From: Candidatus Buchananbacteria bacterium | GTDB lineage: Bacteria; Patescibacteriota; Patescibacteriia; 2-01-FULL-39-33 | Reading direction: 5' to 3' | NCBI GenBank assembly: GCA_041666945.1 | Contig: JBAYFY010000002.1 | Location: 64,701-128,700 of the forward strand | Length of the DNA stretch: 64,000 bases | Part shown: piece by piece, positions 5,543 through 45,663 of the stretch | Position numbering within the stretch: position 1 is the first letter of the stretch | Layout of the letters: every line of letters starts with the position of its first letter | Program-made: the position numbers and the translations under genes | The notes under the pieces: generated by a model | Told to the model about the DNA's origin: nothing | What the model saw: the letters and a program-made list of their open reading frames with translations, nothing else | Database searches by the model: none

Positions 5543-5547
5543 GATTT

Positions 5548-10136: not shown

Positions 10137-10144
10137 TTATAGTA

Positions 10145-10357
10145 TCGTCATTTCCGCAATTATAACATCGTCATTCCCGTAATTATAGTATCGTCATTCC
10201 CGTAACTATAATATCGTCATTCCCGTAATTATAGTATCGTCATTCCCGTAACTATAATATCGTCATTCCCGTAACTATAATATCGTCATTCCCGTAACTA
10301 TAATATCGTCATTCCCGTAACTATAATATCGTCATTCCCGCGCAGGCGGGAATCCAG
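10145..10357. repeat. Tandem array of about 8 copies of a 23-bp unit TCGTCATTCCCGTAACTATAATA, ending in a TCGTCATTCCCGCGCAGGCGGGAATCCAG palindrome
   Basis: Perfect and near-perfect direct repeats start at the dnaX stop codon. There are no unique spacers, so this is not a CRISPR array. Confidence 0.85.
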
Positions 10358-10365
10358 ATATTATT

Positions 10366-10490
10366 TGATCCCCGGACATTTTTTAGTTCACTATACTCGC
10401 TGGGATCTCCGGATAAATCCTCCCGCTTACGCTTACGGATTTTCCGAACCTGCCTGCCGGTAGACAGGGATGACATTAGAGGATATTGGC
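10366..10490. repeat. About 90-bp interspersed element (copy A) containing CTGCCGG(T/C)AG(A/G)CAGGGATGAC
   Basis: Aligns with 41745..41835; the shared core is GGATC(T/C)CCGGA(T/C)AAATCCTCCCGCTTACGCTTACGGATTTTCC. Confidence 0.6.
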
Positions 10491-12210: not shown

Positions 12211-12640
12211 GGGATTTTTTAGTTGTCATTCCCGCATCCCTTTCGTCATTCCCGCACTCCCTTCGTCATTCCCGCACTCCCTTCGTCATTCCCGCGTACC
12301 TTGTCTGCCGGCAGGCAGGGGCGGGAATCCAGGTTATAATTTTTTTTACGATACCCCTTCGTCATTCTCACTTTCGTCATTCCCGCACTTCCTTCGTCAT
12401 TCCCGCGAAGGCGGGAATCCAGATTTCTTGTCATTCCCGCGTACCTTTCGTCATTCCCGCACTCCCTTCGTCATTCCCGCGAAGGCGGGAATCCATGCTA
12501 TCATTTTTTATGATACCTTTCTTTAGGAGAAAGGTATCACCAAAGAGTCGCGAGCGAAGCATAAATCATGGCTGGATTTTATGCTCCACCTGCCTGCCGG
12601 CAGGCAGGATTACAAAACTTTTCTGGTCACTCTCGCATAA
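12211..12640. repeat. Dense non-coding repeat field with the GTCATTCCCGC half-site and GCGGGAATCC palindromes
   Basis: Three clusters of 20-bp GTCATTCCCGC half-site repeats, each ending in a GCGGGAATCC palindrome. It also holds a perfect 12-bp-stem hairpin tgatacctttct/agaaaggtatca and CTGCCGGCAGGCAGG palindromes. The listed 195 aa ORF 12111..12698 is just translation of these repeats. Confidence 0.8.
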
Positions 12641-12741: not shown

Positions 12742-13038
12742 CTACGGTCTTGTGGTTGGTGCTACTATCAATACATTGAGAACTCCCGATACAGGCGGAA
12801 TGTCTTTAATCAACAGATCCGATGTCGGGTTGGTTAACCGTATAACGTGAGTTACCAACCAGTAGCGGTTATCTCTGTCTATTGGATGTAGATTGGCCAA
12901 CTTCAGTGCTCCCTCATCAAGAAAGATGATGTCGCCTTTATGGATCGGCTCTGGCCAATCCAGAAGTATCGGAAGTATCGGCGACGTACCACGACCTGTC
13001 CCTCCAAATTCTACCTGGTAAGTGTGTTTTTCTCCCAT
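12742..13038 (-). CDS. Hypothetical protein (98 aa)
   Basis: An AAAGGAG Shine-Dalgarno sits 8 nt upstream of the ATG. No recognisable domain. Confidence 0.55.
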   Translation of the reverse strand: MGEKHTYQVEFGGTGRGTSPILPILLDWPEPIHKGDIIFLDEGALKLANLHPIDRDNRYWLVTHVIRLTNPTSDLLIKDIPPVSGVLNVLIVAPTTRP

Positions 13039-13097
13039 TTTTTTTCTCCTTTCATTTAGTCGCAGAAATTACTGCGACGAGGCATTGAAGGCGCGTT

Positions 13098-13268
13098 TTA
13101 TCTTGTGACTTCCAGCGCTACCAAAATAAATTCCTTGCCGTCCCGATGGAAGGTGGTCATAGCGGTAATTCGTTTTCCCTTTCCAGGGAACATATCTGCC
13201 CATAATCCTATTTGTGAATCTAAGGTTATTGTCACTTCAAATTCTTTAACATAGATGCTTGTTTCCAT
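13098..13268 (-). CDS. Hypothetical small protein (56 aa, start METSIY)
   Basis: An AAAGGAAG Shine-Dalgarno precedes the internal ATG. It sits upstream of, and is co-oriented with, the 12742..13038 gene. Confidence 0.45.
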   Translation of the reverse strand: METSIYVKEFEVTITLDSQIGLWADMFPGKGKRITAMTTFHRDGKEFILVALEVTR

Positions 13269-13492
13269 ATTCTTCCTTTCTCTTTCTGTGTCATTAGTTT
13301 TTTTCGGCAATATGGCGCAAGCCACTGACCGTTTTTAACGTACTACATATCATCATATAATAGTATACATTAATAATTTTGTCAAGTAGTTTATCCACAA
13401 TTAAGATATTTTGTTTAATTTTAGGTATTTTTTTAAGGAAAAATCATTCCATTTTTTTATTTGTCGGAATTTTGTTATTATTAAAGAAGCTT

Positions 13493-15706
13493 ATGGTCAA
13501 ATATGTTTTACGCGCCGCTCCAATGGCCAAGGATTTTAAAATTGATTATGCCAAGGAGTTAAACGAAGATCAATACAAGGTCGTAACCGAGGGCTACGGG
13601 CCTTGTTTAGTTTTGGCCGGCGCCGGCTCGGGCAAGACGCGGACTCTGGTGTACCGCGTGGTGTATTTGTTGGAGCAAGGCGTGCCCGCTTCCAGCATAA
13701 TGCTCGTGACTTTCACCAACAAAGCGGCCAAGGAAATGTTGGAGCGCATTGAAGTGCTGCTTCACGGCGAGGCCAAGGGGTTGTGGGGTGGGACTTTCCA
13801 TCACTTGGGCAATCGGCTGTTGCGCATGTATGGCGAGCGCATTAATATCGCTAATAACTTTACGATTTTAGATGAAGAGGATTCTTTGACTTTACTCAAG
13901 AATTGTTTGAGCCGCAGTAATCCTCCGGAAGACAAATATTTTCCCAAGGCCAAAGTCATCCGCTCCATAATTTCTCTGTCGCAGAATCTGTGTCAGCCCA
14001 TCCGCGAAGTTATTGCCGCGCGTTACGATTATCTTAAAGACAGCTACTTGCCGTGTATCTTGGAAGCTGCTGATCTATACAAAGAACGCAAAACGCAAAT
14101 CAACGCGTTGGATTTTGACGACCTCCTGATCAAGTGGAACGAACTGCTGGAACAAGCGCCGGAAATAAAAAAGCGTTTGGGTGAGAAGTTCGCCTACATT
14201 TTAATTGATGAATTCCAAGACACCAACGCTTTGCAATCCAAAATCATCGCCAATCTGGCCGCGCCCCAGCGCAATATCCTGGCGGTGGGAGATGACGCCC
14301 AAAGCATCTATGGTTTTCGTGGCGCCGATGTCAACCATATTTTGGATTTTCCCAAGCAGTTCCCCGATGCTAAGATTTTACGGCTGGAGATCAACTATCG
14401 TTCCACTCCCGAGATTCTGGCTTTGGCCGATACTTCCATTAACCATAATGACGCCAAGTTTGAAAAGCATTTGAAAGCGATTCGGGCCAAGGGTGCTAAG
14501 CCGGCCGTGGCGGCTTTGACTGATAATTATCAGCAAGCGGAATTCGTCTGCCAACGGATTCTGGATTTGCAACGCGAAGATGGTTTGCCGCTTAACAGCA
14601 TGGCCGTATTATTTAGATCGCACTTCCAATGTCTGGAATTGGAAATGGAACTCAACAAGCGCAATATTCCATATCAGATGCGTGGGGGACTGCGGTTTTT
14701 TGAACAGGCGCACTTAAAAGATATCCTGGCTTACTTAAAAATCTTAGCCAACTTCCGTGACGAGGTTTCTTGGTTGCGGTTACTTAGTATGCAAGGCGGG
14801 ATTGGCGAGATGACGGCGGAAAAGATCTGGCAATGGTTAAGGCAATTTGATGGCGTTTCTTCAATTTTTTCTACATCTTCTTCCGTCATTCACGACCCCT
14901 CTTCCGTCATTCACGACCCCTCTTCCGTCATTCACGACCCCTCTTCCGTCATTCCCGCGCAGGCGGGAATCCAGCATAATAATTCAACCTGGATTCCTGA
15001 TCAAACCAGGAATGACATTTCCTTGGGCGCTAAGGCCGCCAGTGGCTGGTCGGCTTTAAAGCGCACGCTGGAAAAGATTGCGCGAATAGATAAAAATGAT
15101 TTACCGGCGCTTGTTACCGCTATTATTGATTCGGGTTATGAAAAATATTTGCAGGCCAATTATGAGAATTTTCAGGATCGGTTGGATGATTTGACGCAGT
15201 TGACAGAATTCGTCAAGTCCTATGACAGTTTGGAAAGATTTTTGGCCGATACCGCGTTGTCGGAAAACTTTCAGGGCCAATCGCGCGCGCCGCGGCCGGA
15301 GAATGGCAATGAACAAATAATCTTGTCCACCATTCATCAGGCCAAGGGCCTGGAGTGGCCGGCAGTGTTTGTGATCGGTTTGGCGGAGGGCATGTTCCCG
15401 CACGCCAAGGTTTATGACAAACCGGAGGAACTGGAGGAGGAACGCCGGTTGTTTTACGTGGCTTGCACCCGCGCCAAAGACCAGCTGTATTTGAGTTATC
15501 CATTGTTCGGCCGCGACAGCATGCTGCATCCGTCGCAATTTATTAAGGAACTGCCGAGCAAATTGTATGATCGCTGGGATGTGGAGGCGGGCGAAGACGA
15601 GGTGATTTACGTGGATGAAGAAGGGGAACGCGCGTCAGGTCCGGGCAAACGGAAGGGCATTTTGGATTTTGATCCGGAACTGGAGATTGAGGAATCGGAT
15701 TATTAA
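13493..15706 (+). CDS. UvrD/PcrA/Rep-family ATP-dependent DNA helicase (the start is uncertain: 13493 or 13523)
   Basis: Walker A AGAGSGKTRTLV, the DEFQDTN motif, and the VTRAK-like motif VACTRAKDQLYLSY. The N-terminal codons of the listed ORF overlap an AT-rich promoter region that carries a TTATCCACA box. Confidence 0.85.
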   Translation: MVKYVLRAAPMAKDFKIDYAKELNEDQYKVVTEGYGPCLVLAGAGSGKTRTLVYRVVYLLEQGVPASSIMLVTFTNKAAKEMLERIEVLLHGEAKGLWGGTFHHLGNRLLRMYGERINIANNFTILDEEDSLTLLKNCLSRSNPPEDKYFPKAKVIRSIISLSQNLCQPIREVIAARYDYLKDSYLPCILEAADLYKERKTQINALDFDDLLIKWNELLEQAPEIKKRLGEKFAYILIDEFQDTNALQSKIIANLAAPQRNILAVGDDAQSIYGFRGADVNHILDFPKQFPDAKILRLEINYRSTPEILALADTSINHNDAKFEKHLKAIRAKGAKPAVAALTDNYQQAEFVCQRILDLQREDGLPLNSMAVLFRSHFQCLELEMELNKRNIPYQMRGGLRFFEQAHLKDILAYLKILANFRDEVSWLRLLSMQGGIGEMTAEKIWQWLRQFDGVSSIFSTSSSVIHDPSSVIHDPSSVIHDPSSVIPAQAGIQHNNSTWIPDQTRNDISLGAKAASGWSALKRTLEKIARIDKNDLPALVTAIIDSGYEKYLQANYENFQDRLDDLTQLTEFVKSYDSLERFLADTALSENFQGQSRAPRPENGNEQIILSTIHQAKGLEWPAVFVIGLAEGMFPHAKVYDKPEELEEERRLFYVACTRAKDQLYLSYPLFGRDSMLHPSQFIKELPSKLYDRWDVEAGEDEVIYVDEEGERASGPGKRKGILDFDPELEIEESDY
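14872..14975 (+). repeat. In-frame MITE insertion inside the helicase coding sequence
   Basis: Three copies of the 21-bp unit cttccgtcattcacgacccct are followed by cttccgtcattcccgcgcaggcgggaatccag. It translates in frame as SSVIHDP repeated three times, then SSVIPAQAGIQ. The same palindrome family occurs in intergenic DNA. Confidence 0.8.
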
Positions 15707-16976: not shown

Positions 16977-17026
16977 TTATTTGTGGATAAAAAGCTCTTG
17001 ACAAAATACTTATGATTTGATATAAT
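16977..17026 (+). promoter_or_regulatory. Consensus sigma70 promoter with an upstream DnaA-box-like TGTGGATAA
   Basis: TTGACA at 16998-17003, a 17-nt spacer, TGaTATAAT at 17018-17026, and TGTGGATAA at 16983-16991. An approximately 107-nt 5' UTR runs to the DGR target gene. Confidence 0.6.
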
Positions 17027-17140
17027 AATGTATTAGCAAAAGTCCTGTCGACTTATCTAATTCGTACCTGATAATGGTCGGTTTGGGGCTGGGGCGTGGT
17101 GTCCAGGCAATGAGCTGACCAAAAATAGGAGAGATAGAAC

Positions 17141-35188: not shown

Positions 35189-36781
35189 ATGAGTTCTAAT
35201 AATACAACCAAACCAAAACCGGTCGTACTGATGATTTTAGACGGCTGGGGCGCAGCGCCGCCTTCCCGATCTAACGCCATTACTTTGGCCAAAACGCCGG
35301 GCGTTACCGGACTGATAAAAACTTATCCGGCCATGACTTTGCAGGCCTCGGGCGAAGCCGTGGGTTTGTCTTGGGGAGAAATCGGCAATTCCGAAGTCGG
35401 CCATCTTAACTTGGGTTCCGGCAAGTTGGTGTATCAGAACCTGCCGCGCATCAATAAGTCAATCGCCGACGGCTCGTTTTTTGAGAATGAGAAATTCATT
35501 GACGCTTTAAAACACGCCAAGAAAAATAAAGGCAAAGTCCATTTGTTGGGATTGATTTCTTCCGGCGGCGTGCACAGCTATATTGACCATCTGTTTGCCT
35601 TGCTGGAATTGTGCCAAAAGGAAAAATTCCGCGAAGTGTATATCCACGGCATCTTGGACGGCCGCGACATGCCGTATAATTCCGGCATTGATTTTGTGGA
35701 CAAAATAAAAAGCAAGACCGAAGAGTTGGGCGTGGGCCGAATTGCCACTTTGTCCGGCCGGTTCTACGCCATGGATCGCGACAATCATTGGGAGCGCGTT
35801 GTTTTGGCGTATAATGCCATGGTCAAAGGCGGGGCGGCGGAAAAATTCAGCGATCCGGGCGAAGCAGTCAGGGCCTCTTACGGCAAGAAAATTTATGATG
35901 AAGAATTCGTGCCGGTGGTGATTGAAGACGATGGCCAACCTGTTGCCGTTATCACTCCCGGCGATGCCGTGATATTTTTTAATTTCCGCGCCGATCGCGC
36001 CCGGGAAATCTCCAAAGCGTTTGTTCTGCCCGGTTTTGAAAAATTTGAACGGCAATATTTGAAAAATTTGTATTTCGTGGCCATGACCGAATATGAAAAG
36101 GATGTTCCCATGGAAATCGCTTTTCCGCCGGAAACCATAGAAAAGCCGCTGGCTAAAGTCATTGCCGATGCCGGCTTGACCCAATTGCATATCGCGGAAA
36201 CGGAAAAGTACGCTCACGTTACCTTCTTTTTTAACGGCGGCGCCGAGCAAGAATTTTCAGGCGAAGACAGGATTTTGGTGCCATCGCCGCGCGTCGCTTC
36301 TTACGCGGAAAAGCCGGAGATGTCGGCTAAGGAAGTGGCGCAAAAAACCATTGACGCCATTATGTCCGACAAATACGATTTTATCGTGTTGAATTTCGCC
36401 AACTGCGATATGGTCGGTCATACCGGCGATTTGAAAGCGACTATTAAAGCCGTGGAAACGGTGGATAGCTGTGTCAAAAAAATCACCGAGGTCATCCTGG
36501 CCAAGGGCGGAGTGGCACTGATTACCGCCGATCATGGCAATGCTGAAGAGCTGGTCAATTTGCAATCGGGCGATATTGACAAGGAACACAGCACATACCC
36601 CGTGCCGCTTGTCATTATCGGCAAGGAATGGGAAGGCAAGAACGCCGGTTTTCCGGAAGTGCCGGGCGGGGATTTGTCTTTGGTTCAGCCCGCCGGGCTA
36701 TTGTCCGACGTGGCGCCGACGATTATTGGCATTATGGGACTGAAACAGCCGACGGAAATGACAGGCAAACCGCTCATTTAA
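35189..36781 (+). CDS. gpmI: 2,3-bisphosphoglycerate-independent phosphoglycerate mutase, copy 2 (tandem paralog)
   Basis: MILDGWG, SEVGHLNLGSG, and ADHGN. It diverges from copy 1 (roughly 40-50% identity by eye). Confidence 0.9.
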   Translation: MSSNNTTKPKPVVLMILDGWGAAPPSRSNAITLAKTPGVTGLIKTYPAMTLQASGEAVGLSWGEIGNSEVGHLNLGSGKLVYQNLPRINKSIADGSFFENEKFIDALKHAKKNKGKVHLLGLISSGGVHSYIDHLFALLELCQKEKFREVYIHGILDGRDMPYNSGIDFVDKIKSKTEELGVGRIATLSGRFYAMDRDNHWERVVLAYNAMVKGGAAEKFSDPGEAVRASYGKKIYDEEFVPVVIEDDGQPVAVITPGDAVIFFNFRADRAREISKAFVLPGFEKFERQYLKNLYFVAMTEYEKDVPMEIAFPPETIEKPLAKVIADAGLTQLHIAETEKYAHVTFFFNGGAEQEFSGEDRILVPSPRVASYAEKPEMSAKEVAQKTIDAIMSDKYDFIVLNFANCDMVGHTGDLKATIKAVETVDSCVKKITEVILAKGGVALITADHGNAEELVNLQSGDIDKEHSTYPVPLVIIGKEWEGKNAGFPEVPGGDLSLVQPAGLLSDVAPTIIGIMGLKQPTEMTGKPLI

Positions 36782-36810
36782 TCAAACAAGAAAATAAAAA
36801 ATTAACAAAT

Positions 36811-38463
36811 ATGTTAAAAATTTTTAAGAAAAAACGCTTTTGGATTATTTTAATAATCATTCTGGCAGTGGTCGGATTCGGAATTTATAAATTGGCAAGT
36901 CCAAAACCGGCTGTGGAATATACCACGGAAACAGTTAAGCGCGGCAAATTGACGCAGACGGTTTCCGCCACCGGCCAAGTTGAGTCGGCGCATGAAATCA
37001 CTTTGAATTTTAAAACGCCGGGCAAAATAACTTATTTAGGCGTCAAAGAAGGGGATAATGTCAAGGCCGGCCAGGATTTGGCGCGGATTGACTCCGGTTC
37101 CATTGCCGCTCTGATCAAGCAGTATCAGGCCAATTTGGCCTCAGCTCAAGCCAATCTGGAAAAAGTCAAAGCCGGCGCCTCCGTTGAAGATATTAAGTTG
37201 ACCCAAGAGCAATTAACCAAAACGCAAAATGATTACAATAACTTGGTTCGCGAATCAAAGACGCAGGTTGATATTTTGAAGGATAAAACCATTGACAGTT
37301 TGAATAACGCCGTTTTTACTTCGCAGACGGCGTTAAACACGGTTTATAGGAACTTGATTAACACGGAAACAACCGTCAGCATGATAGTCATGGATATTGA
37401 TTTGCAGAATCAAGTAAAAAGTGATTACGGTATTTTAGTTAATAATCTTGCCGCCTTGCGTGATGAAATAACGGCGGCGCAAAAATCCTATGATCAGCAA
37501 TTAATCGCTCAAGCCAGCGATGACGTGAAGGATTTTTTGAGCCGGCTTAACAGTTACCTGGATTCCAGCTTTAATTTGACGGATATGATAATCGTCAATA
37601 CCACTTATACGCAAACGAAAAAAGATACGATTAAATCCGACATCTCAACGCAGCAAACCTCCAATAACACTTCGCTTACGGCCGTGCAGACCGCTCGTTC
37701 CAATCTCATCAACACCGCCGATTCTTACCAGTCGCAGATTCTGGCGGCGGCCAATGCCGTTTCCATCGCGCAAGCGTCTTTGGATCTGAAGAAGGCCGGC
37801 CCGCGCAGTTTTGAATTGGCTTCGGCCGAAGCCGCGGTGGCGCAAGCCCAGGCCTCGCTGGATAAAACCAGGGCCGATGCCGAGGACTATGTCATTCGCG
37901 CGCCCATTGACGGCAAAATCACCCAAGTCAATTATTCTTTGGGTGAAACCACGGCAGTGGCCGAAGCGGCGATCGCCATGCTTTCCAATGAGCGTTATGA
38001 AATCAAAGTGGATATCCCGGAATCGGATATAATCAAACTGATTGTCGGGGAGAAGGTCACGATTGATTTGGACGCTTTTGGCAGCGACCATCCTTTTTCC
38101 GGCGCCGTAACTTTTATTGATCCGGCGCAGACGATTATCAAGGACGTAACTTATTATAAAACCACGGTTACTTTCAATCAGGATTCTTGGAGCGATCAAA
38201 TCAAACCGGGCATGACCGCCAACATTACGATTATCGCGGCGGAAAAAGACAACGCCCTGTATATTCCGCAACGCGCCGTCAAAGTCAGGGAAACGACTTT
38301 GGGCGAAGCGCCGAAGAAATATGTGGAGGTCTTGGTTAACGGCCAAGCGCAGGAACGCGATGTGGAAATCGGTTTGCGCGGCGACGAGGGACTGGTAGAA
38401 ATAATTTTCGGCTTGAATGAAGGCGAACAAGTCGTAACTTACAAAAAAGACAACACCAAATAA
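36811..38463 (+). CDS. Periplasmic adaptor subunit of a MacAB-like export system (HlyD/MacA family)
   Basis: A transmembrane anchor, a biotinyl/lipoyl-like hairpin, a long coiled coil, and a beta-barrel C-terminus. It is followed by the ABC ATPase and permease genes. Confidence 0.75.
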   Translation: MLKIFKKKRFWIILIIILAVVGFGIYKLASPKPAVEYTTETVKRGKLTQTVSATGQVESAHEITLNFKTPGKITYLGVKEGDNVKAGQDLARIDSGSIAALIKQYQANLASAQANLEKVKAGASVEDIKLTQEQLTKTQNDYNNLVRESKTQVDILKDKTIDSLNNAVFTSQTALNTVYRNLINTETTVSMIVMDIDLQNQVKSDYGILVNNLAALRDEITAAQKSYDQQLIAQASDDVKDFLSRLNSYLDSSFNLTDMIIVNTTYTQTKKDTIKSDISTQQTSNNTSLTAVQTARSNLINTADSYQSQILAAANAVSIAQASLDLKKAGPRSFELASAEAAVAQAQASLDKTRADAEDYVIRAPIDGKITQVNYSLGETTAVAEAAIAMLSNERYEIKVDIPESDIIKLIVGEKVTIDLDAFGSDHPFSGAVTFIDPAQTIIKDVTYYKTTVTFNQDSWSDQIKPGMTANITIIAAEKDNALYIPQRAVKVRETTLGEAPKKYVEVLVNGQAQERDVEIGLRGDEGLVEIIFGLNEGEQVVTYKKDNTK

Positions 38464-38514
38464 CGCGCGACTTGCCGCTTCCGGCGCCCGGCGGACAGAA
38501 GCTAAATTGAAAAT

Positions 38515-39237
38515 ATGACAGAGAAATTAATAGAAGTTAAGGATTTAAAAAAGGATTATGTCAATGACGAAGTGGTAACGTCCGTATTACACGGCGTCAG
38601 TTTTGATATTCATGAAGGCGAATTCGTGGCGATTATGGGGCCGTCCGGTTCGGGCAAATCCACCCTGATGCATATTTTGGGATTTTTGGACAACCTGACT
38701 TACGGCCAATTCTTTTTTAAGGGGCGTGACGTCAGCAATTTGGACGAAGACGAGTTGGCGCGCATCAGAAATGAAGAAGTCGGCTTTGTTTTTCAGGCCT
38801 TTCATTTATTGCCTAAGACCTCCGTTTACAACAACGTCAAGCTGCCGTTATTGTATGATAAAGCCAAAGATGACGATATTAAAGTCAGAAGCGCGATTAA
38901 AGCGGTCGGATTGGAACACCGGATTAATAATTTTTCCAACCAGCTTTCGGGCGGCGAAAAACAAAGAGTAGCCATTGCCCGCGCGCTGGTCAATAAGCCC
39001 TCAATTATTTTTGCCGATGAGCCGACCGGCAATTTGGACAGCAAATCGGGCAATGCCATTATGGAAATTCTGGAGGGCTTGAATGATATGGGCCACACCA
39101 TTATCCTGGTGACCCACGAAACCGATACGGCCAAACACGCCAAACGCATTATTAAAATAGTTGACGGCTTAATCGCCGAGGATTATGAAGTTAATGACCG
39201 CCGCCGCGCCAAAGACGGCAATCAATTGATGAAATAA
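38515..39237 (+). CDS. ABC transporter ATP-binding protein (MacB/LolD family)
   Basis: Walker [10 protein letters not shown], the [15 protein letters not shown] signature, and Walker [13 protein letters not shown]. Confidence 0.9.
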
Positions 39238-40473
39238 ATGCGATTAATTGAAACCGTAAAATTATCTTTTTCCGTTTTGCGCACCAACCGGACGCGCAGT
39301 TTTTTGACTTCGCTCGGGATTATCATCGGCATTGCCGCCGTCATCGTGATTATCTCCGCCGGCGCCGGCGCGCAATCATTGATTGTCAATCAATTCAACG
39401 CTATCGGTACTAACTTAATCGGCATTCTGCCCGGCTCAAGCGATGAAGACGGTCCGCCCGCCTCCGCTTTCGGCATTATTCTGCAAACGCTCAAATACGA
39501 GGACGCCCAGGCCATCGCCCAAAGCGTGCCCCACGTTACCGCCGTTTCTTCTTATAACACCGGCATGGCCACCGCCTCATATCAAAGCGCCAAAACGGAC
39601 GCAACTTATTACGGCGTCATGCCTGAATATTTAGACGTGGAAGACACGGGCGTGGACAAGGGGAGGTTTTTTGACAACGATGAAGACAGGGGCAGCGTTA
39701 AAGTCGCCGTGCTGGGCTGGCAAGTGGCGAGGGATTTGTTTGAGGGGCAGGAACCCGTGGGCAAGAAGGTTAAAATCGGCAAGGAATTTTTTGAAGTTAT
39801 CGGCGTGATGCGCCAGCGCGGCGTTTCCGGCTTTCAGAATAATGATGAAATCATTTTGATTCCGGCGCAAACCGCGCAAAAAATAATGCTGGGCGTGCGC
39901 CATGTCGGCTTTATCCGCGCCAAGGTTGATAAAAAGGAAAACTTGCCGCAGGCGGTGGACGATATCCGCTTGCTGTTGCGCGACCGCCATAATCTGCTGG
40001 AATCAAAAGTTGATGATTTTAATATTCGCAATACGGCCGACGCCATTAAGACCTTGACTTCCATCACTGATGTGTTGAAATTTTTCCTGGCCGCCATCGC
40101 CGGCATTTCCCTGTTAGTCGGCGGCGTAGGCGTTATGAATATCATGCTGGCCTCGGTCAATGAGCGCGTCCGCGAAATCGGCCTGCGCAAAGCCGTCGGC
40201 GCCAAGCCCAATGACATTATGGTGCAGTTTTTGGCCGAGTCGATCACCGTCACTTTGACCGGCGGCGTCGTAGGCATTATCATTGGCTCGTTGATTTCGG
40301 CGTTAGTTGCCATAGTCGCCAGATATTTGGGCTATGATTGGGATTTGGTGGTTTCGCCGCTATCCATATTTATGGGTTTTGGCGTGGCCTTTGTCGTCGG
40401 TTTGATTTTTGGCATTTATCCGGCTCGCCGGGCGGCCAAACTTAACTCCATTGAGGCGTTAAGGTGGGAATAA
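39238..40473 (+). CDS. ABC transporter permease (FtsX/MacB-type)
   Basis: An N-terminal transmembrane helix, a large periplasmic domain, and a C-terminal FtsX 3-TM domain. Translationally coupled to the ATPase gene. Confidence 0.85.
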   Translation: MRLIETVKLSFSVLRTNRTRSFLTSLGIIIGIAAVIVIISAGAGAQSLIVNQFNAIGTNLIGILPGSSDEDGPPASAFGIILQTLKYEDAQAIAQSVPHVTAVSSYNTGMATASYQSAKTDATYYGVMPEYLDVEDTGVDKGRFFDNDEDRGSVKVAVLGWQVARDLFEGQEPVGKKVKIGKEFFEVIGVMRQRGVSGFQNNDEIILIPAQTAQKIMLGVRHVGFIRAKVDKKENLPQAVDDIRLLLRDRHNLLESKVDDFNIRNTADAIKTLTSITDVLKFFLAAIAGISLLVGGVGVMNIMLASVNERVREIGLRKAVGAKPNDIMVQFLAESITVTLTGGVVGIIIGSLISALVAIVARYLGYDWDLVVSPLSIFMGFGVAFVVGLIFGIYPARRAAKLNSIEALRWE

Positions 40474-40506
40474 TAAGTTAAGTTGTTAATCGTCTTTTTA
40501 GCTGGT

Positions 40507-40535
40507 AAATCGCTTATTTCAGGCGATTTTTTTAA
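40507..40535 (+). terminator. Rho-independent terminator after the exporter operon
   Basis: aaatcgc-ttatttcag-gcgattt followed by tttttaat. Confidence 0.5.
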
Positions 40536-40585
40536 TTTTATTTTATCTAATTTTAGCTATAATAAGCTATATCAAGCTATATTAT

Positions 40586-40626
40586 GTGGATAAAACACTT
40601 GACAAAATATTTAAGGTGTGATATAA
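40586..40626 (+). promoter_or_regulatory. Perfect consensus extended -10 sigma70 promoter with an upstream TGTGGATAA
   Basis: TTGACA at 40598-40603, a 17-nt spacer, and TGaTATAAT at 40618-40626. TGTGGATAA sits at 40586-40594. It is almost identical in architecture to the promoter at 16977..17026. Confidence 0.6.
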
Positions 40627-40631
40627 TAGCT

Positions 40632-41320
40632 TATTCAAGATAGCGGTTGTGGATAAGTCGATATATAGACAATAATCATTATCTTGCCAGCAGTTTAAAA
40701 ACTGTTTTAAAAGAGTTCTTCGGGGCTCTTTGTCAGGGCGGCATATGGCTTATGTCATAGATCGCCCTTGACAAAGGTTCCCGAGATAGGGGAGTATTGG
40801 AAAACGGAACATTAAATTAAATAATTTGTTCGCGGCAGCTTGTCGCCGCATTGATATGATTAAGGCGTATGCTTGTCCGCCTAAATCTGTTCCAAAGCCA
40901 AAAGCCGAGGAGCATAGGAGGAGATTAAGCTGAAGAGGGGGCCTGGCTTGAAATTATATATTCGCCAACCGCCTTAATTCACTTCTTCAAGTCTTGATTG
41001 TATCAATGCGGTGATTACTTTGGCCGTCAAAGCAGGCGGGCAAACTTGTCTACTGAAAGGTGGGCACGCCGCAAGCACTTTCTGAAAGAAGAACTTTCCC
41101 GCCGTCGGGCTATTATCCCGCCGGATCGGTAGATCTCCTTTCTCCCGGGGAGGCGTTGTAGCAATACGCGCCTCCCCCACACGCCTCAGACAGTATGGTT
41201 CGAGAGTGTATAATCAAATCCTCACAAAGGAAACTTGGTTTTACGCTCACGGCCGAAATACTGTTTGAGGCGTGTGTTGCAAAATAGCAATTTCATTTAC
41301 GAGCCATCTCGTAAAGGAGG
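40632..41320 (+). other. About 690 nt apparently non-coding transcribed region, a candidate structured RNA or long leader
   Basis: No ORF of 60 aa or more on either strand. Many stable hairpins, for example ctttgtcagggcg...cgcccttgacaaag and ggggaggcg-ttgtagcaatac-gcgcctcccc, and a long-range pairing ttaaggcg/cgccttaa. It lies between a strong promoter and the zinc-ribbon mini-genes. Confidence 0.3.
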
Positions 41321-41324
41321 GCCT

Positions 41325-41525
41325 ATGATAGCTCAATGCTGCGTTTGTCATAAGGTGCGTTTGTCTGGTAATGTTTGGGTGGGTCAATTTATACCCCCGG
41401 GAGAACAGGTCTCCCATGGCTATTGCCCGGAATGCGCCGCACAAGCGCGTGAAGGCATGCAGCGGGAATTGGCCGTTGATCGGCAAAGACGGGAGCCCGC
41501 CAATGGCAATGGCGAGAAAAAATAA
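41325..41525 (+). CDS. Small zinc-ribbon protein A (66 aa)
   Basis: An AAGGAGG Shine-Dalgarno sits 4 nt upstream. The protein carries CCVC...(27 aa)...CPEC. Confidence 0.5.
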   Translation: MIAQCCVCHKVRLSGNVWVGQFIPPGEQVSHGYCPECAAQAREGMQRELAVDRQRREPANGNGEKK

Positions 41526-41691
41526 ATGCCCGGCTTGTATTAAAATCGAAATAACGCCGGGTCAGTGGAAACACGCCGTTTTGCTTGCCGGCGAAGAAAC
41601 AGTGCCGCAATACTGCCCGCATTGCAAGGCAGTAATTGAGGGATATGCTCGAATGGTTACGATCAATTACGGTCGCGACCGAAAAAAATAA
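41503..41691 (+). CDS. Small zinc-ribbon protein B (62 aa), a paralog of A that overlaps it out of frame
   Basis: CPAC...(27 aa)...CPHC with the same spacing as A. The start overlaps the 3' end of A by 23 nt. There is no Shine-Dalgarno, so translational coupling is possible. Confidence 0.42.
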   Translation: MAMARKNKCPACIKIEITPGQWKHAVLLAGEETVPQYCPHCKAVIEGYARMVTINYGRDRKK

Positions 41692-41707
41692 AGTAAGAAC
41701 ATTGTGA

Positions 41708-41741
41708 GGAGGAGGCCGAGCGCTTCCTCCTTTCGCTTTTT
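41708..41741 (+). terminator. Rho-independent terminator after the zinc-ribbon pair
   Basis: ggaggaggc-cgagc-gcttcctcc followed by tttcgcttttt. Confidence 0.5.
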
Positions 41742-41744
41742 AAA

Positions 41745-41835
41745 GATTATGGATCCCCGGACAAATCCTCCCGCTTACGCTTACGGATTTTCCAGGCCTA
41801 TCTGCCGGCAGGCAGGGATGACGATAAAGGATATT
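41745..41835. repeat. About 90-bp interspersed element (copy B)
   Basis: Aligns with 10366..10490 and contains CTGCCGGCAGGCAGGGATGAC. Confidence 0.6.
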
Positions 41836-42242
41836 GGTTAATAATTATTTATCCACAGCCCGACTCTTGACAATTATATTGTTTTTACGAAAATTTGTTA
41901 TATAATTTTATATTAAGGGAGGACATTAAGCGCCAAGCATTTTCAATCGCACTTTCCTAAAATTTTTTTTAGGATCACACTTAAGTGTGATTTCGAGAAT
42001 TCTTATCGCGTCTTCTCCGAGTCCCGCCCCCGTGGCGGGACTTTTAATTGGCTAATGAGCGAGCGAACCAGCGCTTCAAAGCGCTGGATTCCGAGCGAGC
42101 GACGCCAATATAGTCAAATACTGCTCGGCTTGCCGAGCTATTTAGTACGCAAGTTTCATTATCACCCTTATCACCATAGGGCTTGCCCCGAGGACTATAT
42201 TGGTTGATTTTTTTGATTAATGCTATAATTTAATTAAGCACT

Positions 42243-42620
42243 ATGTCGCTTAAGCAATTAATCATTACCATAATCATCGCCACCTTGTTGTGTTGGGCCA
42301 GCTGGCTGCTGGTTATTTTTGAGGTGGATCCGACGACCGCCGGCTTTTACGGCCTGCTGATTTTTTATTCCAGCATGTTTTTGTCTTTGCTGGGCTTGTT
42401 TTTTTTGATCAGTTTCGGTTTTCGCAAAATGTTTAATCGGTTGGAAATGGAATACAAGCTGGTGGGCATGTCTTTTCGCCAATCGTTTTTTTTCTCGTTG
42501 GCGATAGTGGGATTTTTCTTTTTGCAGAGCAAGGATTTATTGACTTGGTGGAATAGTATTCTGCTGGTCTTGGCCTTGGTGATTTTAGAATTTTTCTTTT
42601 TGAGTTATCGGAGAAAATAG
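42243..42620 (+). CDS. Hypothetical 4-TM membrane protein
   Basis: 125 aa with four hydrophobic segments. Confidence 0.6.
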   Translation: MSLKQLIITIIIATLLCWASWLLVIFEVDPTTAGFYGLLIFYSSMFLSLLGLFFLISFGFRKMFNRLEMEYKLVGMSFRQSFFFSLAIVGFFFLQSKDLLTWWNSILLVLALVILEFFFLSYRRK

Positions 42621-42664: not shown

Positions 42665-42975
42665 ATTTTCTCTTTTCTTTTTTCTACGTCACCCCCTCCT
42701 GTCATTCCCGCACCCCCTTCGTCATTCCCGCACCCTCTTTGTCATTCCCGCGTAGGCGGGAATCCAAGTTATAATTTTTTTGTCATTCCCGCACCCTTTT
42801 GTCATTCCCGCACCCTCTTTGTCATTCCCGCGAAGGCGGGAATCCAGGTTTAGAAATTTAGATTTCATTTCTGGTACCTTTCTCTATTGTCATTTCGACC
42901 GAAGCCGACGTAAACGTCGGCGCAGTGGAGAAATCGCTTGAATTAAATTAAAGGGATTCCTCCGCTACGGTCGGA
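42665..42975. repeat. Repeat field upstream of pheS with an internally deleted inverted-repeat element
   Basis: Two clusters of GTCATTCCCGC 20-bp half-site repeats, each ending in a GCGGGAATCC palindrome. At 42885..42975 there is an internally deleted element with inverted termini TTGTCATTTCGACCGAAGC...GCTACGGTCGGAATGACAA. The listed pheS ORF start lies inside it. Confidence 0.8.
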
Positions 42976-43020: not shown

Positions 43021-44109
43021 ATGAGCAATATGAAAGAAAAACTTAGCCAATTAAAGGCGCAATTCACCGAGGAATCGGCAAAGGTCAAATCAGCCAAGGA
43101 GCTGGATGATTTGGAGAACAGATTTTTGAGTCGCAAGAGCGGACTGCTGACCGGTATCATGAAGGGGATCAAGGACGTGGCCAAGGAAGAGGTGGCCGAA
43201 GTCGGCGCTTTGGCTAATGAAACCAAAGAATATATTGTTGAGGGGCTGGAAACGCTTAAGGGCAACTTGGGCGGCGCCGGCTCTTTTAATTTTGATTTTA
43301 CCGTGCCTGGCCGCAAGCCGGCGGTCGGCCATTTGCATTTGGCCACCATTGCCATTCGCGAGATTGAAAGCATCTTACAGCCGCTGGGGTTTGTCCGAGC
43401 GCGCCATCCGGACGTGGAATGGGATTATTACGCCTTTGAGACCTTGAATATGCCCGGCGATCATCCGGCGCGCGATGATTGGGAGACATTTTTCATTGAC
43501 GAAGCGCCGATTAAGATGAACTTGCCGGAAAATTCTTTAAAACTCGTCAAAGAGGGGAGACGCTTGCTCACGCCGCACACTTCCAGCATTCAGGTGCGCG
43601 AAATGGAGAAGGGTGTCCTGCCTATTCGCATGATGAATATTTCCAAATGCTATCGCCGGCAAATTGACGTGTCGCATGTGCCGATGTTCCATCAGTTTGA
43701 GGGCTTGGTGGTGGACGAGGGGATTAATATCACTCACTTAAAAGGCACGATTGATTATTTCGTCAAGAAATTTTTCGGCGAGGATCGCACGATTCGTTTG
43801 CGCCCGCATCATTTCCAATTCACGGAGCCGAGTTTTGAAGTGGATATTTCCTGCGGTTTGTGCCATGGCACGGGCAAGTTGGAAGACGGCAGTTCTTGTC
43901 GTATGTGCAAAGAGGGCTGGCTGGAACTCGCTGGCGCCGGCATGGTGCACCCCAATGTCCTTAAGGCCGGCGGCATTGATCCCAATAAGTATTCTGGTTT
44001 CGCTTTCGGCTGGGGCGTGGAGCGTTGCTACAGCATGAAGTCGGGTTTAAATATTGATGATTTGCGGTTGATGTATAAGAATGATTTGAGGTTTAATGAG
44101 CAGTTTTAA
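43021..44109 (+). CDS. pheS: Phenylalanine--tRNA ligase alpha subunit
   Basis: Class II aaRS motifs including FQFTEPSFEVD and GWGVERC. The start is set at the first ATG downstream of the repeat. Confidence 0.9.
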   Translation: MSNMKEKLSQLKAQFTEESAKVKSAKELDDLENRFLSRKSGLLTGIMKGIKDVAKEEVAEVGALANETKEYIVEGLETLKGNLGGAGSFNFDFTVPGRKPAVGHLHLATIAIREIESILQPLGFVRARHPDVEWDYYAFETLNMPGDHPARDDWETFFIDEAPIKMNLPENSLKLVKEGRRLLTPHTSSIQVREMEKGVLPIRMMNISKCYRRQIDVSHVPMFHQFEGLVVDEGINITHLKGTIDYFVKKFFGEDRTIRLRPHHFQFTEPSFEVDISCGLCHGTGKLEDGSSCRMCKEGWLELAGAGMVHPNVLKAGGIDPNKYSGFAFGWGVERCYSMKSGLNIDDLRLMYKNDLRFNEQF

Positions 44110-44202
44110 TATTAGCTTGTAGATTTTATAATTTTGCATTAATCACCCATAAAAGGTTTTGCAGATAAAAAGTAGTATAAGATTTATTAATAGTCACATT
44201 AG

Positions 44203-45150
44203 ATGAGATATATGTCTATTCCAAATTTTGAACAAATAATGAGTCCAATGATTAAGGATATCATTGATGGCGAAAATCATTCAATGAATGATATCGTCGA
44301 TCATTTATCGGAATTTTTTAATTTAACTGAAGATGAAAAAAATGTTAGATATCCCACTAGTGGAGCAAAAATTTTTCAAAATAGAGTTAGATTTGCTCGC
44401 TTATATTTAATGAAGGCTGGTTTAATCGAATCACCAATCCGTGGTTTTATAAAACTAACATCAGATGGGTTAATGCTTTTTAAAAAAGAAACCCCAAACA
44501 TTAATTTAGATTATCTTGAAAAATTACCGAAATTTCAAGAATTTCAAAAAATGCAAAAAGAAACACAAAGAAATAAAAAAGATAGTTCTAATAATGAAAG
44601 AATTGTTTTGCATGCAGAAAATAATCTGGAACAAATTCCCGAAGAACAATTAGAAAATGCATTCCAGATAATTAATGATAATTTATCCGTTGAAATATTA
44701 GATACTTTAAAAAAGTGTCAACCATTATTTTTTGAAAAAATAGTAGTTGATCTTGTATTAAAAATGGGCTACGGTGGTTCGTTTAAGGATGCTGGTGAAG
44801 CCATAGGTAAAAGTGGTGATGGTGGAATTGATGGGATAATTAAGGAAGATAGACTTGGTTTAGATTTAATTTATTTACAAGCTAAAAGGTGGGAAAATGT
44901 AGTCCCAGTAAAAGAGATAAGAGATTTTGCTGGATCCTTAATGTCTAAAAAGGCTAAGAAGGGAATTTTTATTACTACATCAAGTTATCCCACGTCAGCT
45001 TTCGAATTTGTAAAATCAGTTGACCATAGAATAATACTAATCGATGGTCAACAATTAGCGAAATTATTAATTGATTTTAATGTTGGAGTTACAACGGAAT
45101 CAGTTTATGAAATTAAAAAAATTGATGGCGATTATTTTATAGAAGAATAA
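44203..45150 (+). CDS. mrr: Mrr-family restriction endonuclease (Mrr_N winged helix plus Mrr_cat)
   Basis: The catalytic region carries GGSFKDAGEAIGKSGDGGIDGII ... YLQAKRW. It is AT-rich relative to its flanks and is inserted between pheS and pheT. Confidence 0.85.
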   Translation: MRYMSIPNFEQIMSPMIKDIIDGENHSMNDIVDHLSEFFNLTEDEKNVRYPTSGAKIFQNRVRFARLYLMKAGLIESPIRGFIKLTSDGLMLFKKETPNINLDYLEKLPKFQEFQKMQKETQRNKKDSSNNERIVLHAENNLEQIPEEQLENAFQIINDNLSVEILDTLKKCQPLFFEKIVVDLVLKMGYGGSFKDAGEAIGKSGDGGIDGIIKEDRLGLDLIYLQAKRWENVVPVKEIRDFAGSLMSKKAKKGIFITTSSYPTSAFEFVKSVDHRIILIDGQQLAKLLIDFNVGVTTESVYEIKKIDGDYFIEE

Positions 45151-45162
45151 TTTATAAACTTA

Positions 45163-45195
45163 AATATCTCGTACAACTGGCTAAAGTCGTAGCCC
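45163..45195 (+). repeat. 33-bp direct duplication of the pheT 5' end
   Basis: ttaaatatctcgtacaactggctaaagtcgtag at 45163 versus ctaaatatctcttacaactggctaaagtcgtat at 46088, the first codons of pheT. Confidence 0.7.
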
Positions 45196-45663
45196 GTTGT
45201 CATTCCGACCGAAGCGTAGCGTAGTGGAGGAATCCCTTTAAAAGCACTTTATGGTTAAATATTACTACTTGTATATTATGGCTTCAGAATCCGGAACTTT
45301 ATATGTCGGGATTACAAATAATCTTGGTCGGCGAGTATGGGAACATAAAAATGAAATTATTGAGGGCTTTACTAAAAAATACGGCTGTAAGAGATTGGTT
45401 TATTATGAATACGGACAAGATGTTAATGGCGCTATCTGTAGAGAAAAACAAATTAAAAATTGGAATAGAAAAAAGAAAGAATTTTTGATAAAAACAATTA
45501 ACCCAAAATGGATTGATTTAAGCAAAGAAATGTTCGGTTTTAAAGAATTTTGAGGGATCCCTCCACTCGGCCTTGAGGCCTCGGTCGGGATGACAAGAAA
45601 AAGAAAGGCCTCGGTCGGGATGACAAGAAAAAGAAAGGCCTCGGTCGGGATGACAAGAAAACA
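45185..45663 (+). mobile_element. MITE-family element carrying a GIY-YIG nuclease gene, a putative autonomous copy, with a triplicated right end
   Basis: The left terminus GTCATTCCGACCGAAGCG...GTGGAGGAATCCC at 45185-45235 and the inverted right terminus GGGATCCCTCCAC...CCTCGGTCGGGATGAC at 45553-45596 bracket the GIY-YIG ORF. Three 30-bp tandem copies of the right terminus follow at 45577-45663. The termini match the empty element at 42885..42975. Confidence 0.5.
45251..45553 (+). CDS. GIY-YIG nuclease superfamily protein (about 100 aa)
   Basis: YYLYIMASESGTLYVGITNNLGRRVWEHK, matching the GIY, YIG, R and E motifs. Confidence 0.8.
   Translation: MVKYYYLYIMASESGTLYVGITNNLGRRVWEHKNEIIEGFTKKYGCKRLVYYEYGQDVNGAICREKQIKNWNRKKKEFLIKTINPKWIDLSKEMFGFKEF

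Follow-up and report, generated by a model that had tools for sequence, protein, structure and literature searches.

The question raised by positions 40474 to 42242 of the DNA studied here is what 1.7 kb without an evident large gene can be doing in a bacterium of the candidate phyla radiation (CPR), a group with tiny genomes and little spare DNA. The segment lies in a 64,000-nucleotide stretch of the genome of a Candidatus Buchananbacteria bacterium (assembly GCA_041666945.1, contig JBAYFY010000002.1, positions 64,701 to 128,700), which we call the window. An original prediction, made from the letters of the window, had placed there a textbook promoter, about 690 nt of hairpin-rich non-coding transcript and two small zinc-ribbon genes, and had considered a large structured non-coding RNA, a riboregulated leader or a small-protein module. 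Our results strongly support the first of these: the RNA has 19 syntenic homologs and one divergent homolog, three of its domains covary, its folding differs markedly between the strands, and three relatives carry it with no open reading frame (ORF). We put at roughly 0.7 the probability that the segment holds a previously undescribed, lineage-specific, multi-domain structured RNA gene of Candidatus Buchananbacteria-type Patescibacteria that works along the lines proposed below. Few large, intricately folded RNA classes are known in bacteria, namely RNase P, group I and group II introns, transfer-messenger RNA (tmRNA), OLE, GOLLD and ROOL, and these have turned out to be ribozymes, cores of ribonucleoproteins (RNPs) or unusual assemblies. 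The presence of a conserved 0.45-0.7 kb non-coding gene behind a consensus promoter in a small CPR genome suggests a function of importance.

Conservation, strand and structure of the RNA

Because both mini-proteins looked like orphans in a word-indexed protein search, which returned only the two queries themselves (a result that phmmer corrected for ORF1), the flanking MacB permease was used as bait. Relatives were traced by a GTDB scan, then through MacB homologs from a large protein collection, and then by an 18-mer scan of metagenome contigs. The GTDB scan yielded the closest relative (L002), whose MacB is 89% identical and whose intergenic region can be aligned with the window. The MacB homologs added the syntenic loci L007, L010, L011, L012, L013 and L015, all with a homologous RNA, and the 18-mer scan hit 36 loci, 13 of them true homologs. 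The 19 syntenic copies and the divergent copy, which lies elsewhere, come from CPR metagenomes and genomes. In every true homolog with recognizable flanking genes, the order is macB, RNA, membrane protein gene and pheS; L050 has no flanking match. More distant MacB loci (L003-L006, L014, L054 and L055) show another gene order and no RNA in their flanks. No viral contig contained the invariant 18-mer, and a distant blastn search of a phage collection returned only the promoter (41 nt). A near-identical contig, differing at 1 of 12,378 bases, exists in ENA.

A protein gene that had been missed because of a frameshift was looked for and was absent. Identity to L002 is 78-86% for the RNA, 82% for the upstream block of the macB operon, 70% for ORF1 and 65% for ORF2. 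Mismatches in the RNA are distributed 23/19/24 over the three codon positions, without codon periodicity, and its indels of 1, 18, 2, 2 and 2 nt do not keep to multiples of three; in macB the mismatches are distributed 46/17/158 with no indels, and the indels of ORF1 measure 3 and 15 nt. Thus, the substitution periodicity and the indel lengths of the region rule out a missed or frameshifted gene. The earlier statement that no ORF of 60 aa or more exists here fails literally, as mechanical ORFs of 68-106 aa overlap 40974-41691, but none is conserved as coding sequence except the mini-gene frames.

The textbook promoter is present, one base further along than first given (40599-40627 instead of 40598-40626). 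It matches the sigma-70 consensus at 12 of 12 positions, carries a TG extension at -15/-14 and would start transcription near 40634. The region contains 10 promoter-like sites, compared with 3.7±1.8 in shuffled sequences. The segment around this promoter, P1 (40585-40632), is 96% identical in L002, its TTGACAAAAT shows no variation across eight aligned homologs, and a P1-type promoter is located 5' of the RNA in most of the remaining homologs. Intrinsic terminators lie at 40507, where the upstream HlyD/ABC/MacB-FtsX efflux operon ends (36628-40473, with the MacB/FtsX domains in 39238-40473), and at 41706.

The hairpin-rich stretch described behind the promoter proved real. Between 40633 and 41320, the + strand folds with -287.9 kcal/mol, against -198±7 in shuffled sequences (z = -13.05), while the - strand reaches -231.6 kcal/mol (z = -6.87); such a gap is expected if a + strand RNA contains G-U pairs. 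The RNA begins with two hairpins, H1 (40636-40686), which contains GGTTGTGGATAA at 40645-40656, and H2 (40690-40706). On reading the homologs, the closing stem of H1 occurs in the compensatory variants CAAGAUA/UAUCUUG, GAAGAUU/AAUCUUC and ACAG/CUGU. The long hairpin H3 was recovered by single-sequence folding in every homolog, and compensatory changes were found in 16 of its 29 consensus pairs (MAFFT and RNAalifold, 18 sequences). A linker follows that gains 265 alignment columns in L002, holds a large insert in L007 and is reduced to near zero in L012. The core domain folds independently in all homologs, with a long closing helix, a three-way junction and a variable hairpin in arm 1. Its near-invariant GGCGUAUGCUUGUCCGCC, represented by the 18-mer GGCGTATGCTTGTCCGCC, showed no variation among the five homologs aligned first; of 21 core copies, 18 match it exactly, and only those of L012 and L052 and one of the two in L037 deviate. 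The spacer behind the core is occupied by a 59-aa ORF in L010 and L011. The terminal hairpin D5 is 97% identical in L011, although both of its flanks are replaced there.

The relatives showed both conservation and covariation, the latter in H3, the core and D5. A covariance model (R1) was built from the MAFFT/RNAalifold alignment of the core. At this locus, it scored 172.7 bits on the + strand and 18.8 on the - strand, and across loci it scored 85-177 bits on the + strand and 18-33 bits on the reverse strand, with one copy per locus and one in the window. The sole exception is L037, in which the core is duplicated in tandem (5130-5544; 124 and 85 bits). With MAFFT and RNAalifold only, 19 of the 35 core pairs were compensatory. 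In the model alignment (20 sequences), 96% of the cells were paired and 20 of the 35 pairs showed double changes (101 cells), compared with 41-51% of cells paired in controls with slid partners. The covariation score of the core was 0.535, against 0.08-0.16 with slid partners, and was reached by none of 500 shuffles. For D5, 19 of 35 pairs were compensatory in a 12-sequence alignment, and when the window was compared with L002 alone, none of 154 predicted pairs was broken. Homologs with compensatory changes on one strand, and controls that score far lower, are the pattern of a conserved structured non-coding RNA in general. The long-range pairing of ttaaggcg (40860-40867) with cgccttaa (40970-40977) that had been pointed out does exist in this sequence, but relatives do not retain it: the proportion of paired cells (63%) hardly differs from that in shuffles (62%), covariation is absent, and the 5' half of the pairing belongs to another, strongly covarying helix.

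By eye, GGGGCUC has two possible partners within 40713-40784, a local hairpin or the GGUUCCC of the long H3. The local form (GAGUUC-UUCG-GGGCUC) is a cUUCGg tetraloop hairpin that is present in the nearer clade and seems to covary, although it was not formally counted, whereas the long form occurs in all homologs and covaries in the formal count. A conformational switch in H3 is possible.

The RNA as a stand-alone gene and with a proposed coding extension

In L012, L015 and L042, the full RNA is followed by no ORF before the next promoter, and the RNA is thus conserved independently of the ORFs. In L012 and L015, D5 runs straight into a U-run, which makes it a classical terminator. The RNAs of such relatives are shorter (about 450-550 nt in L012 and L015); that of L012 measures 451 nt and keeps the same domain order (z = -11.3). 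In the window and in L002, L022, L011 and L029, by contrast, D5 is followed by GUGUGUUGCAAAA..., in which the U-run is broken, and a terminator scan found no terminator-like site between P1 and ORF1, the first one lying at 41706. Because the U-run is eroded, read-through into the zinc-ribbon genes is expected, and a coding extension on a conserved RNA would make this a dual-function RNA in this genome. From the missing terminator, the eroded U-run and the in-frame indels, we infer that the RNA and the ORFs share one transcript and that the ORFs are translated. In our reading, the ancestral unit was the stand-alone RNA, and the coding extension and its translational clamp are later add-ons; the locus would then illustrate how a stand-alone RNA gene gains coding cargo as its terminator erodes and an anti-Shine-Dalgarno (anti-SD) clamp is added.

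We propose that P1 transcribes H1 to H3, the variable expansion site, the three-way-junction core, the spacer, D4 and D5. In the simplest relatives, D5 with its U-run would end the transcript and release the RNA alone; here, a transcript of about 1.1 kb would read on into both mini-genes and stop at 41706-41742. The anti-SD tract would pair with AAGGAGG across D4 and D5 and hold the translation of ORF1 down. This step is modeled on predicted pairing: in all 10 ORF-bearing homologs tested, the predictions place the SD of the first ORF in a pairing with a pyrimidine-rich stretch further 5', at probabilities of mostly 0.7-1.0. An equivalent CU tract lies just 5' of D4 in L002, L022, L011 and L029, and none is present in L012 or L015. 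Thus, the riboregulated leader of the original prediction is partly supported for this genome, by the lack of a terminator before ORF1 and by the predicted pairing of its SD. The RNA itself would most likely be abundant and work in trans, binding proteins or serving as a scaffold, and the co-encoded zinc-ribbon proteins would be its most plausible partners. A separate small RNA (sRNA) of about 130 nt, under a promoter of its own and ended by its own terminator, follows.

ORF1-family genes lie 3' of the RNA in 12 of the 20 distinct loci. The divergent copy was found in a more distant Buchananbacteria genome (L052), whose own macB locus (L054) lacks the RNA. There, a related element is flanked by a helicase gene and by feoA. 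Its promoter is of the same type, it contains an H3-like hairpin, and its divergent core (44 bits, E 3e-12) stands immediately 5' of an ORF1-family gene. Because this is a different genomic context, the association of the RNA with ORF1 recurs independently. This recurrent link to an unnamed, widespread family of about 60 aa marks the family as a candidate protein partner and gives a first lead on its function. The cargo is variable in other loci: L010 and L011 carry an ORF of 59 aa, L033 one for a hydrophobic peptide of 29 aa, L050 one for a 107-aa protein, and L037 several ORFs. In L024, L027 and L049, the ORF1 zinc ribbon forms the N-terminal domain of a 149-159-aa protein encoded after the RNA. 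These long proteins share a C-terminal part (..VPELT.SGF.LKF.NGM.IG..YNRVIDLLLAAPP..), and in L024 and L027 the gene is followed by another zinc-ribbon ORF.

The two overlapping, paralogous mini-genes are both present as conserved ORFs with in-frame indels, and they are followed, as had been described, by a terminator (41706-41732 plus a T-run). ORF1 shows the pattern CCVC...W...SHGYCPEC and a C-terminal helix, and is conserved in L002, L022, L011, L029, L007, L013, L017, L024, L027, L049 and L052. Its product is the NCBI entry 'MAG: hypothetical protein WCT16_01800 [Candidatus Buchananbacteria bacterium]'. An exhaustive phmmer search with ORF1 returned 237 clusters at E<=1e-3, nearly all of them stand-alone proteins of 50-75 aa from metagenome-assembled genomes (MAGs) of Patescibacteria and Proteobacteria and, where named, 'hypothetical'. 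Across 108 sequences, the family consensus is M.VQCCVC.KVR...W...VSHGYCP.CA, with C5, C6, C8, C34 and C37 invariant, and AlphaFold2, run with these sequences, predicts four short strands followed by a long helix (mean confidence, pLDDT, 86.8). With two CxxC-type knuckles and invariant cysteines, the model is consistent with a generic zinc-ribbon fold. A pattern C..CKK.R...W...SHG.CP.C also presumably occurs at the C-terminus of many bacterial signaling proteins.

ORF2 (KCP.C...PG.W...YCP.C) is conserved in L002, L011, L022 and L029, and its comparison with the ORF1 family by hhalign gave a probability of 94.8% (E 5e-8). By homology, the start at 41497 (CAATGGC...) is more likely than the second ATG at 41503. 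The searches of Pfam, NCBIfam and PADLOC assigned neither protein to a family, and no relative was found in PDB by sequence or by Foldseek. In Pfam and NCBIfam, the best scores of ORF2 were 16.3 bits (cut-off 27) and 14 bits (cut-off 36), and ORF1 had no match; a single Pfam family was touched by only 3 of the 108 ORF1-family members. The two proteins thus resemble Zn_ribbon_3, Zn_ribbon_8 and the HVO_2753-like family of Pfam and YnfU of NCBIfam in their CxxC ... CPxC arrangement, invariant cysteines and length of about 60 aa, and the predicted fold of ORF1, a beta-hairpin zinc knuckle followed by a helix, is that of zinc-ribbon small proteins; however, every model of a named family scored far under its cut-off (14-16 bits against 27-36). 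Homology searches with the peptides therefore revealed a wide family for ORF1 and no named family for either protein. The conservation of both as ORFs and the breadth of the ORF1 family also bear out the small-protein module.

Alternative readings and known RNA families

Several points weigh against a dedicated RNA gene of the kind proposed. An alignment fitted by a covariance model leans towards its own structure, though the alignments made with MAFFT only agree with it. The RNA has a narrow distribution, within a single clade in which MacB is at least 65% identical. The partnership of the RNA with zinc-ribbon proteins is not obligatory, because the cargo 3' of the RNA varies. SD/anti-SD complementarity easily arises by chance between CU-rich and GA-rich sequences. 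We infer the ends and abundance of the transcript and the read-through, as we do the SD masking and the function in trans, and no result points to biochemical activity.

Under a rather unlikely alternative, the whole 690 nt would be a purely cis-acting leader, such as a giant riboswitch, attenuator or thermosensor, that controls only the zinc-ribbon mini-genes. The position of ORF1-family genes 3' of the RNA in most loci and at the independent L052 agrees with this, as do the predicted SD masking, the terminator-like D5, whose efficiency could be modulated, and the alternative UUCG hairpin of H3, which on reading, not by formal count, competes for GGGGCUC in a switch-like manner. However, L012, L015 and L042 keep the RNA without an ORF, the first two with a good terminator, the conservation of the RNA (86%) exceeds that of the ORFs (65-70%), and the cargo differs among lineages. 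In addition, the CU-rich anti-SD was seen in the ORF-bearing relatives examined and is missing in L012 and L015, which suggests an add-on to the core design, and typical riboswitch leaders are far smaller. A T-box or riboswitch leader of pheS was rejected, as there was no Rfam match and this gene is separated from the RNA by P2, P3 and two terminators.

The variety of small ORFs behind a constant RNA, including hydrophobic ones of 29 aa (L033) and 47 aa (L037), would also suit a small-gene cassette platform or a selfish, toxin-antitoxin-like module, in which a stable, strongly transcribed and structured leader would prevent the translation of potentially toxic peptides, as happens in type I toxin mRNAs; the predicted long-range sequestration of the SD and the strong promoter point the same way. 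We regard this as improbable. ORF1 and ORF2 are charged, soluble zinc-ribbon proteins and not membrane toxins, PADLOC gave no match, the locus is single-copy and strictly syntenic and hence not mobile, and ORF-less versions persist. No antisense promoter or antitoxin RNA came to light, though no search was aimed at them.

Could the RNA instead be a known one? The covariance-model scan of the window found no known RNA family: in the whole 64 kb, no Rfam 15 family reached its gathering cut-off, and only chance-level hits appeared at E<=10 in 40400-42300 and at E<=1 in six homologous loci. With these same thresholds, the OLE, GOLLD, ROOL, HEARO and raiA models gave no match, and neither did the models of RNase P, tmRNA, 6S and signal recognition particle (SRP) RNA; ARAGORN found no tRNA or tmRNA in the window. 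By inspection, the architecture of H3, three-way junction with its long closing helix and D5 is unlike that of RNase P, tmRNA, 6S and SRP RNA. CPR genomes are divergent, remote family members can escape covariance models, and the size and the strong promoter would suit an abundant housekeeping RNA. Even so, we consider it very improbable that a housekeeping or large RNA (RNase P, tmRNA, 6S, SRP, OLE, GOLLD, ROOL, HEARO or T-box) has here diverged past detection, considering that, apart from these search results and the unlike domain architecture, lineage-specific expansions, a tandem core (L037) and the insertion of an ORF within the RNA would not readily be expected of an essential housekeeping RNA.

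Least tenable is the absence of any functional RNA, with DNA-level hairpins (of the kind of repetitive extragenic palindromes (REP) or miniature inverted-repeat elements (MITE), operators, or a DnaA-box cluster or origin) or a decayed protein gene in its place: REP-like repeats are abundant in the genome, with two here (41751-41837 and, further downstream, 42697-42860), and three perfect DnaA-box 9-mers lie within 1.3 kb, but the changes in three domains, which are compensatory or preserve G-U pairs, are consistent with the + strand alone, a single copy of the core is present in the window and, save for L037, at each locus, the GC skew makes no turn, no adjoining dnaA or dnaN was seen, DnaA-box-like sites also occur at two unrelated promoters, and the region lacks both codon periodicity and a preference for indels in multiples of three.

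A structured RNA gene of its own thus remains our preferred reading, and its likenesses to known systems are those of analogy. The search of full-text literature gave no account of an RNA of this kind in Patescibacteria. OLE of Firmicutes, with its partner OapA, is the closest analogue in size, ornate structure and expected abundance. Both RNAs are large (hundreds of nucleotides), multi-domain and strongly conserved, with no biochemical function assigned and high expression expected, and a small hydrophobic protein gene also stands beside the present RNA in every locus that is long enough (42243-42620 here). On the other hand, the OLE model gave no match, the phylum is another one, and the neighboring protein has no detectable family and is tied to the RNA by synteny only. 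We know of no protein-coding cargo in OLE. OLE is described as having exceptionally high expression and as being kept at the membrane by a partner protein (PMC3413148).

In transcript design, RNAIII (hld, S. aureus), SgrS (SgrT, E. coli) and SR1 (SR1P, B. subtilis) are closest, in that an independently conserved structured RNA belongs to a transcript that also encodes one or more small proteins. RNAIII is about 0.5 kb long and has many hairpins. These RNAs share no sequence or structure homology with the present one, for which no base-pairing targets are known, and each encodes one short peptide, whereas the coding part here is an add-on that is missing in some relatives and comprises two zinc-ribbon proteins of 60-66 aa. 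For long-range SD masking, the nearest analogues would be type I toxin mRNAs such as hok and tisB, since in the present RNA, too, a remote pyrimidine-rich anti-SD is predicted to close the ribosome-binding site over stable intervening hairpins, but the products here are soluble zinc-ribbon proteins and the upstream RNA is conserved without any ORF. The large RNA belongs to none of the OLE, RNAIII-type and type I toxin mRNA families. It also recalls GOLLD and ROOL in its size class and its ornate, multi-helix character, and these large RNAs were likewise found by comparative genomics, with no function assigned (PMC12286853). In contrast to them, it has no covariance-model match, its 18-mer is not found in viral contigs, the window holds no tRNA, and the locus is chromosomal and syntenic. 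As a tentative extension that we think unlikely on present results, the RNA may found a new CPR-specific large RNA class, either an RNP scaffold working with the zinc-ribbon mini-proteins (perhaps with the membrane protein as well, as in OLE/OapA) or a ribozyme, with the GGCGUAUGCUUGUCCGCC junction as active or binding site and the downstream sRNA as part of the same system.

Downstream sRNA and other features of the window

The features of the locus are collected in Table 1. Downstream of the mini-genes lies a neighboring conserved sRNA, a second uncharacterized RNA. Promoter P2 (TTGTTT at 41879-41884, 17 nt, TATAAT at 41902-41907) precedes it, its closing helix is GGGAGGAC/GUCUUCUC, and an intrinsic terminator (GUCCCGCC...GGCGGGAC-UUUU, 42021-42045) ends it. 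The block 41838-42056 is 89% identical in L002 and recurs in most homologs; 15 of 42 pairs were compensatory in 10 sequences, and single-sequence folds agree. Rfam contains no family for this sRNA, the best hit being Trp_leader with 20.6 bits (gathering score 41), which corresponds to the sRNA hairpin and terminator. The two perfect palindromes noted earlier are real (41956-41973 and 41974-41991). They had been called operator-like; however, the inner stems of the sRNA use both, and they are therefore stems of an RNA and not operators. The 5' GGGAGGA of the sRNA (41917-41924) is complementary to UUCUCCC (41140-41146) in the anti-SD tract, over 7 bp including one G-U. Judged from these sequences, the sRNA could in principle open the ORF1 clamp, but the same sRNA sequence also occurs in ORF-less genomes.

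Table 1. Positions of the elements of the locus within the window
Feature	Position	Strand	Basis or remark
Intrinsic terminator closing the HlyD-ABC-MacB operon	40507..40538	+	9-bp stem and T-run (terminator scan)
DnaA-box-like perfect 9-mer, TGTGGATAA on +	40585..40593	-	5 nt 5' of the -35 hexamer
Promoter P1: TTGACA, 17 nt, TG-n-TATAAT	40599..40627	+	sigma-70 match 12/12
Large structured RNA, about 640 nt here	40634..41276	+	fold z-scores, homologs, non-coding pattern
5' hairpins H1 and H2	40636..40706	+	minimum free energy fold
H3, long conserved hairpin UUCGGGG.CUCUUUGUCAGGGCGG ... CGCCCUUGACAAAGGUUCCCGA	40720..40784	+	18-sequence MAFFT alignment
Variable linker / expansion site	40785..40836	+	alignments
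Core domain, closing helix of about 25 bp around three-way junction	40837..41019	+	covariance model, alignments
Lineage-specific spacer with hairpins	41020..41133	+	similarity to L010/L011 ends at 41045
CU-rich anti-SD tract UCUCCUUUCUCCC	41134..41146	+	predicted pairing with ORF1 SD
D4, GC-rich hairpin GGGGAGGCG...CGCCUCCCC	41147..41177	+	fold; analogous hairpin in L012
D5, 100-nt terminal extended hairpin CACACGCCUCAGACAGUAUGG ... UACUGUUUGAGGCGUGUG	41178..41276	+	12-sequence alignment
SD AAGGAGGG (41314-41321) and ORF1 (41325-41525), 66-aa zinc ribbon	41314..41525	+	conserved ORF, phmmer
ORF2, 64-aa paralogous zinc ribbon KCPAC...PGQW...YCPHC	41497..41691	+	out-of-frame overlap with 3' end of ORF1
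Intrinsic terminator of the proposed RNA/ORF1/ORF2 transcript	41706..41742	+	11-bp stem (41706-41732) and T-run; similar stem sequence in L002
87-nt dispersed repeat, genome-specific insertion	41751..41837	+	86% identical to 10403-10489
DnaA-box-like TTATCCACA (41849-41857), conserved CTCTTGACA, promoter P2	41849..41907	+	same layout in L012, L033, L042
Second conserved sRNA, about 130 nt	41914..42047	+	ten-homolog alignment, single-sequence folds
Hairpin-rich 144-nt insertion, only this genome	42057..42200	+	fully gapped in L002
Promoter P3 and 125-aa hydrophobic protein gene (42243-42620), then pheS	42200..42620	+	synteny

Some 50 nt of the 87-nt repeat are missing from L002, where the remainder can be aligned only poorly (37% identity over 41692-41837). 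Repeats of the REP/MITE type (GTCATTCCCGCG..GGCGGGAATCC; 87-nt unit) are found in intergenic positions at 10100-10370, 12220-12510, 14860-14975 and 42697-42860, and the copy at 41751-41837 corresponds to 10403-10489. Promoter P3 (TTGGTT, 18 nt, TG-c-TATAAT at 42221-42229) has an extended -10 element and serves the membrane-protein gene. A gene for a hydrophobic protein of 125-150 aa accompanies the RNA wherever the sequence reaches that far; the 125-aa protein of the window had no match in Pfam, NCBIfam, PADLOC or PDB. It is followed by pheS, a Mrr endonuclease island and pheT. This island (44100-45553) is low in GC (27-30%, against about 47% nearby) and encodes a Mrr-type restriction endonuclease and a GIY-YIG ORF, and the relatives have other genes at its position.

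Perfect DnaA-box 9-mers (TTATCCACA) occur six times in the window (8708-8716, 13391-13399, 16982-16990, 40585-40593, 40648-40656 and 41849-41857), compared with a chance expectation of about 0.5; when one mismatch is tolerated, the count rises to 25 sites, against 12.9±3.5 in shuffles. Three of the 9-mers lie about 5 nt 5' of near-identical consensus promoters (13356-13399 on the - strand, 16991-17034 and 40592-40635), and the one at about +15 of the large RNA (TGTGGATAA) is kept in 11 of 17 distinct homolog 5' regions. An origin of replication was rejected as an explanation for the three perfect boxes dispersed over 1.3 kb at the locus, since the cumulative GC skew climbs through 40-42 kb without a turn and boxes also accompany promoters elsewhere; neither dnaA nor dnaN was seen adjoining the locus. 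Because the skew does not turn here, the sites suggest a strong-promoter regulon and not an origin. A second P1-type promoter with an upstream DnaA-box-like site, in the unit 12745-13399 on the - strand, drives two small ORFs (about 13266-13090 and 13036-12745), both with a good SD, so that here again a strong promoter is coupled to small proteins. In a proteobacterial MAG (L053, 2597-4222), an ORF1-family zinc-ribbon gene lies directly 3' of dnaA, and the RNA core model had no significant match in that locus (best 6.8 bits, E 0.48). This adjacency, set beside the DnaA-box-like sites of Buchananbacteria, may be a coincidence.

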